Assembly: GCF_044324875.1 (NCBI RefSeq)
Contig: NZ_CP172185.1
Length of the DNA: 64,000 bases
Direction: 5' to 3' (one strand)
DNA from: Escherichia coli
GTDB taxonomy: Bacteria; Pseudomonadota; Gammaproteobacteria; Enterobacterales; Enterobacteriaceae
Program-made: the position numbers and the translations under genes
Part shown: piece after piece, positions 40,565 through 48,490 of the stretch
Numbering within the stretch: the first letter of the stretch is position 1
Layout of the letters: each line of letters opens with the position of its first letter
The notes under the pieces: generated by a model
The model's input: only the letters and a program-made list of their open reading frames with translations
Told to the model about the DNA's origin: nothing
Database searches by the model: none

Positions 40565-40597
40565 CGCTTACCCTGAATATTCAGGGTAAGCGGTTTT
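40565..40597 (+). terminator. Rho-independent terminator after maeB
   Basis: Perfect 12-bp stem cgcttaccctga/tcagggtaagcg, 4-nt loop, then GTTTTCC. Confidence 0.75.
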
Positions 40598-40839
40598 CCT
40601 GAAATATATTAGTAAAGCTTATTACTGAGTTTACGAATAATAAAAAAAGCAGTATATGAAATATCTCGATATTATTTTATTTATATTCATGCGTCGCATA
40701 TGAAAGTTTATTCATAACAGTAAATATCTCTCCATTCTTAGTGATCTACCTCACCTTTTAAACGCGCTTGCCGAATTTTGTTATTTACTCTGACGAAAAA
40801 TTGTCACGATACACGAAAGTTTTTCACAGGCGGCGACTC

Positions 40840-43143: not shown

Positions 43144-44156
43144 TTATTGAACGTTGTCGTGAACTGGCGTTGCGAGCGCCCGCCAGAGTGGTTTTTCCGG
43201 ATGCGTTAGATCAACGTGTGCTGAAAGCCGCGCAATATTTACATCAACAAGGTCTGGCAACGCCCATTCTGGTCGCCAATCCGTTTGAACTTCGTCAGTT
43301 TGCGCTCAGTCACGGCGTGGCGATGGACGGGCTACAGGTGATAGATCCGCATGGCAACCTCGCAATGCGGGAAGAATTTGCTCTCCGCTGGCTGGCCCGT
43401 GCGGGCGAAAAAACGCCGCCGGATGCGTTGGAAAAACTCACCGATCCGCTGATGTTCGCTGCCGCAATGGTCAGCGCCGGGACAGCGGATGTCTGTATCG
43501 CGGGCAATCTCTCTTCCACGGCGAATGTGCTGCGTGCCGGATTACGCATTATTGGCTTACAGCCAGGCTGTAAAACGCTCTCCTCCATTTTCCTGATGCT
43601 GCCACAGTACAGCGGTCCGGCGTTGGGTTTTGCCGATTGCAGCGTGGTACCACAGCCGACGGCGGCACAACTGGCGGATATCGCGCTTGCCAGCGCCGAA
43701 ACCTGGCGCGCCATCACCGGAGAAGAGCCGCGCGTGGCGATGTTGTCGTTTTCCAGTAACGGCAGCGCCCGTCACCCCTGCGTTGCCAATGTCCAGCAGG
43801 CGACAGAAATCGTCCGTGAGCGCGCGCCGCAGTTGGTAGTCGATGGCGAGTTGCAGTTTGACGCCGCCTTCGTGCCGGAAGTGGCGGCGCAAAAAGCGCC
43901 TGCCAGCCCGCTACAAGGCAAGGCCAATGTGATGGTTTTTCCGTCGCTGGAAGCCGGAAATATTGGCTACAAAATCGCACAACGACTCGGCGGATATCGT
44001 GCCGTCGGGCCATTGATACAAGGACTTGCCGCGCCGATGCACGATCTCTCTCGTGGTTGTAGCGTGCAGGAAATTATCGAGCTGGCGCTGGTGGCAGCTG
44101 TGCCGCGTCAGACAGAAGTAAACCGTGAAAGCAGTTTACAAACACTGGTTGAATGA
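43140..44156 (+). CDS. eutD: Phosphotransacetylase EutD (EutI)
   Basis: 338 aa PTA-family protein; 4-nt overlap with eutT. Confidence 0.93.
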
Positions 44157-44194
44157 ACGGTCCCGTTCTGGACCCTGATAAAGAGGAAAGCACA

Positions 44195-44488
44195 ATGGAA
44201 GCATTAGGAATGATCGAAACCCGGGGCCTGGTTGCACTGATTGAGGCTTCTGACGCGATGGTGAAAGCTGCGCGCGTCAAGCTGGTTGGTGTTAAGCAGA
44301 TTGGCGGCGGCCTGTGTACTGCCATGGTTCGTGGTGATGTTGCAGCCTGTAAAGCCGCGACCGACGCAGGTGCTGCAGCGGCACAGCGTATCGGCGAGCT
44401 GGTATCTGTACACGTTATCCCGCGTCCGCACGGCGACCTGGAAGAAGTCTTCCCGATCGGCCTGAAAGGCGATAGCAGCAACCTGTAA
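44195..44488 (+). CDS. eutM: Major microcompartment shell protein EutM (BMC domain hexamer)
   Basis: 97 aa from ATG 44195 ([28 protein letters not shown]...); AAGAGGAAAG SD; track ORF is extended 14 codons. Confidence 0.93.
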
Positions 44489-44497
44489 TCACCCTGT

Positions 44498-44556
44498 GTG
44501 ACGTCGATTCGGGCGTCACGCTCTCTCCTTTTTCAGTTTACCTTCCGCGGAAGGTA
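44498..44556 (+). promoter_or_regulatory. Two stem-loops in the eutM-eutN spacer (candidate intra-operon attenuator or mRNA processing/stability element)
   Basis: Hairpin gtgacg/cgtcac followed by T-run, then 18-bp perfect palindrome taccttccgcggaaggta. Confidence 0.45.
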
Positions 44557-44594
44557 GGGGGAGCTTTTACCTGAAATACGCCACGGAGGCGGGT

Positions 44595-44882
44595 ATGAAA
44601 CTGGCAGTCGTCACTGGACAAATTGTTTGTACCGTACGCCATCACGGACTGGCGCATGACAAATTGCTGATGGTGGAAATGATTGATCCACAAGGTAATC
44701 CTGACGGGCAATGCGCCGTCGCCATCGACAATATTGGCGCGGGAACCGGGGAGTGGGTGTTGCTGGTGAGTGGCAGTTCTGCCCGCCAGGCGCATAAAAG
44801 CGAAACGTCACCGGTCGATCTGTGCGTGATTGGCATCGTCGATGAGGTGGTGACTGGCGGTCAGGTAATTTTCCACAAATAA
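44595..44882 (+). CDS. eutN: Microcompartment vertex protein EutN (EutN/CcmL pentamer family)
   Basis: 95 aa; GGAGG SD upstream. Confidence 0.92.
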   Translation: MKLAVVTGQIVCTVRHHGLAHDKLLMVEMIDPQGNPDGQCAVAIDNIGAGTGEWVLLVSGSSARQAHKSETSPVDLCVIGIVDEVVTGGQVIFHK

Positions 44883-44893
44883 GGCAGAACATC

Positions 44894-46297
44894 ATGAATC
44901 AACAGGATATTGAACAGGTGGTGAAAGCGGTACTGCTGAAAATGCAAAGCAGTGATACGCCGCCCGCCGCCGTTCATGAGATGGGCGTTTTCGCGTCCCT
45001 GGATGACGCCGTTGCGGCAGCCAAAATTGCCCAGCAAGGGTTAAAAAGCGTGGCAATGCGCCAGTTAGCCATTGCTGCCATTCGTGAGGCAGGCGAAAAA
45101 CACGCCAGAGATTTAGCGGAACTTGCCGTCAGTGAAACCGGCATGGGCCGCGTTGAAGATAAATTTGCCAAAAACGTCGCTCAGGCGCGCGGCACGCCAG
45201 GCGTTGAGTGTCTCTCTCCGCAGGTGCTGACCGGCGACAACGGCCTGACCTTAATTGAAAACGCGCCCTGGGGCGTAGTGGCTTCGGTGACGCCTTCCAC
45301 TAACCCGGCGGCAACCGTAATTAACAATGCCATCAGCCTGATTGCGGCGGGCAACAGCGTCATTTTTGCCCCGCATCCGGCGGCGAAAAAAGTCTCCCAG
45401 CGGGCGATCACGCTGCTCAACCAGGCGATTGTTGCCGCAGGCGGGCCGGAAAACTTACTGGTTACTGTGGCAAATCCGGATATCGAAACCGCGCAACGCT
45501 TGTTCAAGTTTCCGGGTATCGGCCTGCTGGTGGTGACCGGCGGCGAAGCGGTAGTAGAAGCGGCACGTAAACACACCAATAAACGTCTGATTGCCGCAGG
45601 CGCTGGCAACCCGCCGGTAGTGGTGGATGAAACCGCTGACCTCGCCCGTGCTGCTCAGTCCATCGTCAAAGGCGCGTCTTTCGATAACAACATCATTTGT
45701 GCCGACGAAAAGGTACTGATTGTTGTGGATAGCGTAGCCGATGAACTGATGCGTCTGATGGAAGGCCAGCACGCGGTGAAACTGACCGCAGAGCAGGCGC
45801 AGCAGCTGCAACCGGTGTTGCTGAAAAATATCGACGAGCGCGGAAAAGGCACCGTCAGCCGTGACTGGGTTGGTCGCGATGCGGCGAAAATCGCGGCGGC
45901 AATCGGCCTTAAAGTTCCGGAACAAACGCGACTGCTGTTTGTAGAAACCACCGCAGAACATCCGTTTGCTGTGACTGAACTGATGATGCCGGTGCTGCCC
46001 GTCGTGCGCGTCGCCAACGTGGCGGATGCCATTGCGCTGGCGGTGAAACTGGAAGGCGGTTGCCATCACACGGCGGCAATGCACTCGCGCAACATCGAGA
46101 ACATGAACCAGATGGCGAACGCCATTGATACCAGCATTTTCGTTAAGAACGGACCGTGCATTGCCGGGCTGGGGCTGGGCGGGGAAGGCTGGACCACCAT
46201 GACCATCACCACGCCAACCGGTGAAGGGGTAACCAGCGCGCGTACGTTTGTCCGTCTGCGTCGCTGTGTATTAGTTGATGCGTTTCGCATTGTTTAA
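44894..46297 (+). CDS. eutE: CoA-acylating acetaldehyde dehydrogenase EutE
   Basis: 467 aa aldehyde dehydrogenase-family protein. Confidence 0.93.
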   Translation: MNQQDIEQVVKAVLLKMQSSDTPPAAVHEMGVFASLDDAVAAAKIAQQGLKSVAMRQLAIAAIREAGEKHARDLAELAVSETGMGRVEDKFAKNVAQARGTPGVECLSPQVLTGDNGLTLIENAPWGVVASVTPSTNPAATVINNAISLIAAGNSVIFAPHPAAKKVSQRAITLLNQAIVAAGGPENLLVTVANPDIETAQRLFKFPGIGLLVVTGGEAVVEAARKHTNKRLIAAGAGNPPVVVDETADLARAAQSIVKGASFDNNIICADEKVLIVVDSVADELMRLMEGQHAVKLTAEQAQQLQPVLLKNIDERGKGTVSRDWVGRDAAKIAAAIGLKVPEQTRLLFVETTAEHPFAVTELMMPVLPVVRVANVADAIALAVKLEGGCHHTAAMHSRNIENMNQMANAIDTSIFVKNGPCIAGLGLGGEGWTTMTITTPTGEGVTSARTFVRLRRCVLVDAFRIV

Positions 46298-48321: not shown

Positions 48322-48325
48322 AAGT

Positions 48326-48440
48326 GTACGGACAGTCCCCTCGCCCCTTTGGGGAGAGGGTTAGGGTGAGGGGAACAGAGTCGCGCCGGTGCAAATAATT
48401 ACCCTCACCCCGACCCCTCGGCTTCCAGAGTGAGGGAAAA
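48326..48440. repeat. GC-rich extragenic repeat, copy 2 plus partial inverted copy (eutG-eutH gap)
   Basis: gtacggacagtcccctcgcccctttggggagagggttagggtgaggggaaca, then ccctcaccc 28 nt downstream as an inverted partner of gggtgaggg. Confidence 0.7.
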
Positions 48441-48490
48441 ACCCACTTTCAGCATTGGCAATAAATAACAACTAACAGGGAGTAAAGGCG

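Follow-up and report, generated by a model that had tools for sequence, protein, structure and literature searches.

Conserved hairpins between eutM and eutN probably help to set the very unequal amounts of neighbouring proteins of the Escherichia coli eut operon

Among the elements that lie between the genes of bacterial operons, those of the REP/BIME type block 3' exonucleases and give differential expression. Newbury and Higgins in 1987, as well as work on malEFG and hisJQMP, cited in PMC7509114, are said to have found that REP elements protect the mRNA upstream of them from 3' exonucleases. A related arrangement is that of the Rhodobacter puf hairpins and of the stem-loops after papA and fimA, where the gene of a high-copy subunit is followed by hairpins and then by the genes of low-copy partners, with stoichiometry being set after the start of transcription. 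In microcompartment shells, hexamers must greatly outnumber pentamers, and an excess or shortage of the vertex protein results in open or elongated shells; elongated assemblies have been reported for ΔeutN cells (PMC12487888). The literature that we searched offered no explanation of how a ratio of ~100:1 between EutM and EutN is delivered from one operon. Here, we describe the spacer between eutM and eutN, whose hairpins, judging from their sequence, probably help to set these very unequal amounts of neighbouring proteins.

The stretch of DNA that we analysed as a whole, called the window in the following, comprises 64,000 nt of contig NZ_CP172185.1 (RefSeq assembly GCF_044324875.1) and is a segment of an E. 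coli chromosome that carries the eut operon on the + strand in the order eutS-P-Q-T-D(pta)-M-N-E-J-G-H-A-B-C-L-K-R. The 751 nt surrounding the spacer match strain A10 with 100% and most of 5,408 other genomes with 98-99% identity. Between the stop codon of eutM and the start of eutN lies a spacer of 106 nt (44489-44594), and the features of this junction are as follows:

44195..44488, + strand: eutM coding sequence, major hexameric shell protein of 97 aa (open reading frame, translation, and annotation in identical or near-identical E. coli records)
44486-44488, + strand: eutM stop codon TAA
44489..44495, + strand: segment of 7 nt between the stop codon and hairpin H1, unconstrained
44496..44521, + strand: hairpin H1, arms 44496-44505 and 44512-44521, loop 44506-44511 (energy and covariation)
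44520..44564, + strand: hairpin H2 as a whole (RNAalifold consensus, MFE, and covariation)
44539..44556, + strand: inner hairpin of H2, identical with the 18-bp palindrome, 7 bp with loop CGCG
44565..44578, + strand: single-stranded linker UUUUACCUGAAAUA, predicted to be unpaired, 14/14 positions identical
44579..44591, + strand: small hairpin CGCC/GGCG around the eutN Shine-Dalgarno sequence (consensus fold prediction)
44585-44589, + strand: eutN Shine-Dalgarno sequence GGAGG
44595..44882, + strand: eutN coding sequence, pentameric vertex protein of 95 aa (open reading frame, annotation, and homologues in 48 loci)

From eutS to eutR, the gaps between consecutive genes of the operon measure 12, -26, -4, -4, 38, 106, 11, 10, -11, 169, -4, 11, 20, 9, 12, and 45 nt. 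The first-pass annotation, made from the window's sequence, had set the eutM-eutN spacer apart from other eut junctions that mostly overlap or are shorter than 25 nt, which is broadly true, but eutD-eutM (38 nt), eutK-eutR (45 nt), and eutG-eutH (169 nt) are exceptions. The gap between eutG and eutH is even longer than the one between eutM and eutN and reaches 515 nt in strain A10. Among complete E. coli genomes, the eutM-eutN spacer is present in 5,407 of 5,426, mostly with 97% identity, and it occupies a median of one place per genome in these 5,407 (with one match in the window), which rules out a dispersed repeat as its identity. A scan of both strands of the spacer for sigma-70-like promoters found none, no plausible small open reading frame lies within it, and an Rfam covariance-model scan of positions 43500-45500 returned, even at E <= 10, no match but a chance IRES inside eutE. 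Our literature search found no paper describing the spacer, though an early remark about REPs or hairpins in the original eut sequence papers is possible.

RNA fold energies, whose calculation had been suggested together with the first description of the spacer, are low for the whole spacer (-42.5 kcal/mol, z = -2.5) and lower relative to expectation for its first hairpin. This hairpin, noticed at first as gtgacg...cgtcac right after the eutM stop codon, is borne out as H1 (44496-44521), which pairs GTGTGACGTC with GGCGTCACGC over 10 bp (6 of them GC pairs) around a 6-nt loop GATTCG and has an energy of -17.4 kcal/mol (z = -5.05), with none of 200 dinucleotide shuffles being as stable. The inverted repeat GTGACG..CGTCAC occurs a single time in the window (0.19 expected) and is part of a conserved core GUGACGYC/GRCGUCAC at 44498-44505 and 44512-44519. 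Across 16 sequences from 6 genera, 93% of cells in the H1 alignment are paired. Double-sided changes occur at three pairs, for example from G-C to A-U in Yokenella or as C-G, U-G, and U-A at one and the same position, six pairs never vary, and the length of the loop differs among genera from 4 to more than 20 nt.

Hairpin H2 directly abuts H1 and had been overlooked earlier apart from its tip, the perfect 18-bp palindrome TACCTTCCGCGGAAGGTA at 44539-44556. The coordinates and the perfection of this palindrome are as first described, but it is a strain-specific allele and a mere part of the longer hairpin, which the consensus fold and the MFE structure close by CUCUCUCC upstream and GGGGGAG downstream. 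The outer helix of H2 pairs GCUCUCUC (44520-44527) with GGGGGAGC (44557-44564), with an alternative register at 44523-44529 / 44557-63, and between outer and inner helix lies an 11-nt U-rich bulge (44528-44538). This bulge contains the T-run that had been placed after H1; the run exists at 44529-44533 but starts 8 nt beyond the H1 stem without direct contact to it. As an RNA hairpin, the palindrome alone folds with -8.1 kcal/mol (z = -3.2). Perfect palindromes of at least 18 bp number 2 in the 64 kb against 0.39 expected, and one or more turn up in 33% of shuffles, so that a perfect palindrome is not improbable in a sequence of this length and its significance lies in conservation rather than perfection. 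The perfect allele is rare, occurring in 14 of 5,426 complete E. coli genomes, which rules out the perfect palindrome as the functional unit. The common (K-12-like) allele TACCTTCTGCGGAGGGTA pairs only via U·G wobble and therefore points to an element of the sense-strand RNA, not to a DNA binding site. Several pairs of H2 are invariant U·G, its closing pair changes from G-C in Escherichia to C-G in the Citrobacter freundii group, and compensatory changes of the inner hairpin from A-U to G-C and from C-G to U-A are found in Citrobacter R56/NCU1 and in Klebsiella spallanzanii.

Beyond H2, the linker UUUUACCUGAAAUA is invariant among Escherichia, Citrobacter, and K. spallanzanii, and its core UACCUGAA is also found in Buttiauxella and Entomohabitans; it may serve as an entry site for RNase E, as a weak U-tract, or as a translational standby site. 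A switch between UUUACCU of the linker and AGGUAGG of the H2 3' arm was rejected on inspection because R56/NCU1 change the H2 arms while the linker stays invariant. The eutN Shine-Dalgarno sequence had correctly been expected downstream of the palindrome (GGAGG, 44585-44589) and is predicted to be held in a GC clamp, CGCC-ACGGA-GGCG, whereas the ribosome-binding site of eutM is open and A-rich (AAAGAGGAAAGCACAAUG). Computed over -18..+5, an arbitrary range for what is a thermodynamic prediction, the cost of opening the ribosome-binding site in the sequence studied here would be lowest for eutM (3.9 kcal/mol), intermediate for eutE (7.2), and highest for eutN (10.8), with means over 21 species of 5.4 kcal/mol for eutM, 5.7 for eutE, and 9.5 for eutN. 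A helix that would close the spacer by pairing the 9 nt after the stop codon with the eutN ribosome-binding site (ACCC/GGGU in the E. coli MFE structure; GUC.UCC/GGAGGC in C. werkmanii) is putative, being too short and unalignable.

A scan for EutN with one genome per species yielded 48 loci, in 44 of which the eutM-eutN spacer could be delimited. The gap between the two genes has a median of 108 nt over these 44 genomes (range 52-211), compared to medians of 11 nt for eutN-eutE and 38 nt for eutD-eutM. All 44 spacers contain a hairpin of -8 kcal/mol or stronger that starts at a median of 7.5 nt past the eutM stop codon (range 0-50), and the spacer folds with z < -2 in 29 of them. The spacers of Escherichia, the C. 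freundii complex, Citrobacter R56/NCU1/Awk4, and K. spallanzanii share the layout described above (type A), that is, the stop codon, 5-9 variable nt, H1 with its variable loop, H2, the linker UUUUACCUGAAAU, and the Shine-Dalgarno sequence; partial versions exist in Buttiauxella, Entomohabitans, and Yokenella, and all three of these keep H1. In Salmonella, Klebsiella pneumoniae, the Klebsiella oxytoca group, Citrobacter amalonaticus, Citrobacter koseri, Citrobacter sedlakii, Pseudocitrobacter, and Pluralibacter, the spacer is instead made of one or two REP elements (type B; GCCGGATAAG...CATCCGGC and GCCTGATGGCGC types), and only the Shine-Dalgarno region is retained. Other GC-rich hairpins fill the spacers of Intestinirhabdus, Pseudomonas nitroreducens, and two Rhodocyclales genomes. 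The feature common to all lineages is a stable hairpin near the eutM stop codon, in many of them a REP. The lineages with REPs have lost H2 and the linker without obvious harm; the specific sequence would thus be dispensable, and the spacer might in part be a tolerated landing site.

Within the 17 type A spacers of Escherichia, Citrobacter, and Klebsiella, 99.2% of cells form standard pairs, compared to 47-63% in controls slid by 1-3 columns. Between E. coli and Citrobacter, identity is 0.83 for the H1 stem, 0.88-0.93 for the H2 helices, and 14/14 for the linker, compared to 0.56-0.67 at the four-fold degenerate sites of eutM and eutN; such sites, lying in highly expressed coding sequence, serve only imperfectly as a neutral reference. 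Far lower identity (0.1-0.2) is seen in the 9 nt that follow the stop codon, where E. coli and the C. freundii group agree at 1-2 of 9 positions, and in the H1 loop (about 0.1). The module of H1 and H2 folds better in the sense than in the antisense orientation by a mean of 11 kcal/mol and does so in 17 of 17 sequences. This combination of constrained structure, free loops, and covariation, the latter made up of few independent events among related sequences, indicates that the H1 and H2 stem-loops are under selection and argues that in the spacer the eut mRNA carries a conserved element that acts in cis and is read on the sense strand.

The strong imbalance between EutM and EutN, which the first-pass annotation had invoked to interpret the spacer, is real. 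Label-free proteomics of induced E. coli W3110 gave relative iBAQ values of 100 for EutQ, 96 for EutM, 39 for EutL, 37 for EutB, 27 for EutE, 24 for EutC, 11 for EutS, 10 for EutD, 8 for EutK, and 1 for EutN (PMC11334477). The same data contradict the idea that a step-down of the transcript at the spacer is the source of this ratio. EutE, encoded 11 nt past eutN, is 27 times as abundant as EutN, the distal proteins stand at 24-39 (EutB and EutL at 37-39), and eutS through eutR form one transcript, with eutR as the last gene being transcribed mainly from the eutS promoter (PMC10433801), so that termination or decay at the spacer can account for a few-fold difference at most. The bulk of the ratio of ~100:1 must be translational, and the prediction that the ribosome-binding site of eutN opens less readily than its counterparts in eutM and eutE is consistent with such an origin. 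Protein levels are also without a clean step at the spacer (EutD 10, EutM 96, EutE 27, EutB 37; PMC11334477), which again implies that any effect at the level of the transcript is modest and that translation dominates. The values of 96, 1, and 27 for EutM, EutN, and EutE are compatible with segmental mRNA stabilisation while not being diagnostic of it. A Term-seq supplement covering uninduced cells (PMC7815308) lists no sense-strand 3' end at the spacer, its sole eutM entry being antisense, nor does it contain a 3' end of maeB against which the tail UUUU(A)CCUGAAAU shared with that gene could be calibrated.

With moderate confidence, we read the spacer as a module of intercistronic stem-loop punctuation that would protect or insulate the eutM segment of the mRNA and uncouple eutN from it; its effects on RNA stability, termination, and translation are all inferred from the features described above. 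The module would consist of H1 and H2, which start 7 nt past the eutM stop codon, the invariant linker, and the GC-clamped ribosome-binding site of eutN. H1 and H2 could act as a barrier to 3'-to-5' exonucleases, perhaps together with a weak pause or terminator at the UUUU after H2, and an endonucleolytic cut in or beyond the linker would let the eutS...eutM segment outlast the downstream RNA. RNase E prefers RN|WUU, and cleavage might occur within the invariant linker itself, where GC|UUU after H2 would suit this preference. The long structured gap would moreover end translational coupling to the heavily translated eutM, leaving eutN to rely on its own, partly occluded Shine-Dalgarno sequence. 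The net result would be that EutN, destined for 12 vertices per shell, is made ~100-fold below EutM without eutE...eutR being starved. As would be expected of an mRNA-stabilising stem-loop, a stable hairpin lies on the sense strand of a co-transcribed intercistronic region, and selection acts on its structure, as seen from covariation and from stems conserved above neutral sites.

The spacer could also have no present function and be a gap that is tolerated, such as what remains of a former operon boundary or terminator, that drifts slowly and takes in REPs as a landing site. This is unlikely in our judgement, though several observations fit it: The module has given way to REPs of varying number and length (69-144 nt) on several occasions, in C. 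amalonaticus even within the species, the eutG-eutH junction likewise hosts a dispersed structured repeat that varies between strains, and the perfect palindrome is merely a rare allele. A gap free of function would, however, hardly keep its stems and linker more conserved than four-fold sites while loops and flank are not, nor would compensatory changes be expected, and in 44/44 genomes, those of Pseudomonas and Rhodocyclaceae among them, a long hairpin-bearing spacer persists next to junctions that remain at 11 nt.

A partial Rho-independent terminator, at which some polymerases stop after H1 or H2 so that fewer transcripts reach eutN and the genes beyond, appears rather improbable as the main role of the spacer. 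H1 has the form of a terminator stem (GC-rich, 5-14 bp, loop of 3-8 nt) and was flagged as terminator-like by our scan, but that scan had no discriminating power, finding 27 sites compared to 21.4 +/- 5 in shuffles. The first-pass annotation had suggested H1 and the T-run as the partial terminator, and they would make a poor one: The U-run lies 8 nt off the stem, the tail UCUCUCCUUUUU has a T-weight of 2.0 where an ideal tail has about 5 (5.1), and Yokenella and Entomohabitans keep H1 without any U-run, which REP-type spacers lack altogether. H2 is the better candidate, with UUUU directly after its outer helix and a tail UUUUACCU whose T-weight of 3.24 is close to the 3.42 computed for the tail of rrnB T1; a similar tail, GUUUUCCUGAAAU, follows a 28-bp hairpin downstream of maeB. 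Weak attenuation may therefore occur at the UUUU after H2, but the abundance of downstream proteins (EutE 27, EutB 37, EutL 39 versus EutN 1) and the transcription of eutR mainly from the eutS promoter speak against termination on a larger scale.

A bolder version of intercistronic punctuation would see the conserved module as a dedicated device for EutN dosage that sets or regulates how much EutN is made for each EutM and thereby how large the compartment becomes and how it closes. It would be built from H1 next to the stop codon, H2, the linker UUUUACCUGAAAUA, and the clamped Shine-Dalgarno sequence, with an output tied to eutM translation or to a trans-acting factor on the linker or the H1 core, and the unrelated hairpins of other lineages (REPs and GC-rich stems) would have been recruited convergently at a junction where a hairpin is required. 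We consider this proposal quite doubtful.

The role of a trans-acting factor can also be proposed on its own, with the spacer as an RNA site for a regulator of EutN dosage such as CsrA at the ACGGA loop, an sRNA, or a protein on the linker or the H1 core. The 14/14 invariant positions of the linker and the six unvarying pairs of H1 go beyond the needs of structure alone, the eutN Shine-Dalgarno sequence, with its A-N-GGA, is predicted to form part of the loop of a small 4-bp hairpin, and CsrA regulates eut in Salmonella (PMC10433801). Even so, we attach little probability to this reading: The published CsrA site lies in the eutS leader and not in the spacer (PMC10433801), GGA belongs to any GGAGG Shine-Dalgarno sequence, the other GGA motifs further upstream sit in the H2 stem, REP-type lineages lack both linker and H1, and our literature search found no paper linking eutM with REP, Term-seq, sRNA, or Hfq.

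Liang, Rudd, and Deutscher are said to have described in 2015 how ribosomes stall where a REP lies within 15 nt of a stop codon. A brake of this kind on EutM output, with terminating ribosomes stalled by a stop-proximal hairpin of the eut mRNA, is very improbable; the first strong hairpin does lie within the ribosome footprint (median of 7.5 nt past the eutM stop codon over 44 genomes), but its distance ranges over 0-50 nt, and no shell protein is as abundant as EutM, which ranks within the first two of all Eut proteins, whereas a brake would give the opposite. Practically excluded, finally, is that a dimeric protein binds the palindrome as double-stranded DNA (protein binding being the other role once proposed for it): The window carries a perfect 18-bp palindrome and H1 arms contain CRE-like TGACGTCA in some genera, but the DNA is imperfect in >99% of E. 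coli genomes and pairs there only as U·G in RNA, Citrobacter R56 alters 7/14 stem bases with pairing kept, the spacing of the H1 arms varies from 4 to >20 nt, the Citrobacter arms TGACGCCA/TGGCGTCA are mutual complements rather than repeated palindromes, and folding strongly favours the sense strand (by ~11 kcal/mol, 17/17).

As a concrete and easily mutable candidate for control of the EutM:EutN ratio, the conserved hairpin module at this junction is also relevant for synthetic compartments, since transplants of the eutSMNLK cassette usually keep or drop the spacer unknowingly.

Compared to REP/BIME elements such as those of malE-malF and hisJ-hisQ, the E. coli module is alike in being formed by stable intra-operon stem-loops just after a highly expressed gene and in being extragenic, transcribed, and hairpin-forming; REPs even physically fill the orthologous spacer in Salmonella, most Klebsiella, and several Citrobacter. 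In contrast to them, the E. coli spacer is devoid of the consensus core GCCGGATG / GCCTGATG...CATCCGGC that type B spacers have, is single-copy per genome and not dispersed, and combines its linker, which is invariant, with a particular arrangement of two hairpins. With the puf and pilin operons, the eutM spacer seems by analogy to share a design logic. These systems belong to unrelated organisms and sequences, though, segmental stability or partial termination was measured there whereas the eut module is known from sequence, and EutE as the protein after EutN is abundant again. Rho-independent terminators and attenuators resemble the module in having a GC-rich hairpin followed by U residues (H2-UUUU; H1...UUUUU), but the U-tracts of the eut spacer are short or displaced, a tail is not kept in all genera that bear H1, and 11 downstream genes including the activator eutR need read-through. 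Inside the operon itself, the eutG-eutH junction provides a second long, GC-rich, and strongly folding spacer (-50 kcal/mol, z -2.4), yet this one is a strain-variable multi-copy repeat (median of 15 places per E. coli genome), whereas the module at eutM-eutN exists as a single copy and is fixed in 5,407/5,426 genomes. The kind of element is thus long familiar and, stem-loop punctuation of operons having been known since the 1980s, holds no new principle; what is new here is a well-conserved example of it, with unrelated hairpin-forming sequence at the same junction in other lineages.

Two further inverted repeats accompany the eut operon in the window, one upstream of its first gene and the other within it:

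40565-40605: 28-bp perfect palindrome CGCTTACCCTGAATATTCAGGGTAAGCG with its tail, directly 3' of the maeB stop codon and about 250 nt before eutS
48322-48490: intra-operon gap of 169 nt between eutG and eutH, containing a GC-rich inverted-repeat element

The palindrome behind maeB, with a folding energy of -22 kcal/mol (z -7.6), probably serves as the terminator of that gene; the Term-seq supplement for uninduced MG1655 (PMC7815308) is without any maeB 3' end. Directly 3' of this palindrome lies the tail GTTTTCCTGAAAT, a near-copy of the invariant CTTTTACCTGAAAT that is located 3' of hairpin H2 in the eutM-eutN spacer. At up to 2 mismatches, this 13-mer has 4 matches within the window where 1.1 are expected, and the similarity of the tails of the two hairpins may be a coincidence.

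The same Term-seq data (uninduced MG1655; PMC7815308, supplementary file 1) include one 3' end antisense to eutM, the sequence of which we placed on the minus strand at about 44418-44480 of the window with its terminus at about 44418. This means that a certain amount of antisense transcription reaches into eutM from the side of the spacer or of eutN.

The element between eutG and eutH (cccctcgcccctttggggagagggttagggtgagggg ... ccctcaccccgacccctcgg; -50.4 kcal/mol, z -2.4) is a dispersed repeat, and E. coli genomes carry it at 15 places each (median). This junction is variable between strains, since the gap measures 515 nt in strain A10 (locus L050) compared to 169 nt in the window. Identity to A10 is likewise uneven, reaching 100% across eutM-eutN but only 98.5% over the surrounding 28 kb (30165-58560), and because of this unevenness together with the different eutG-eutH spacer the locus is a recombination mosaic. 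The CPZ-55 prophage, which in K-12 sits between eutA and eutB, is absent here, and the two genes are contiguous with a gap of 11 nt (from the annotation of the collinear strain A10).

Among relatives, Klebsiella spallanzanii (L043) carries an H1-H2 spacer of the Escherichia/Citrobacter type and an EutM 98% identical to that of E. coli, whereas REP elements and an EutM at 95.8% are found in the related K. pneumoniae and K. oxytoca group (L029-L031, L036). Such a distribution points to one of two histories: this portion of the operon was exchanged horizontally, or REPs invaded repeatedly. The EutN scan also returned three tiny contigs (L018, L033 and L044; 269-466 bp) from assemblies labelled Gemelliphila, Prolixibacteraceae and Caballeronia; their EutN is enterobacterial (87-98% identity), and they are most likely contamination in these assemblies.

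Three genomes labelled Citrobacter amalonaticus (L009, L011 and L015) have 3 different REP arrangements in eutM-eutN spacers of 77, 115 and 101 nt. Such variety under a single species label implies fast REP turnover at this junction: its REP content changes rapidly, whereas the H1-H2 module is stable.
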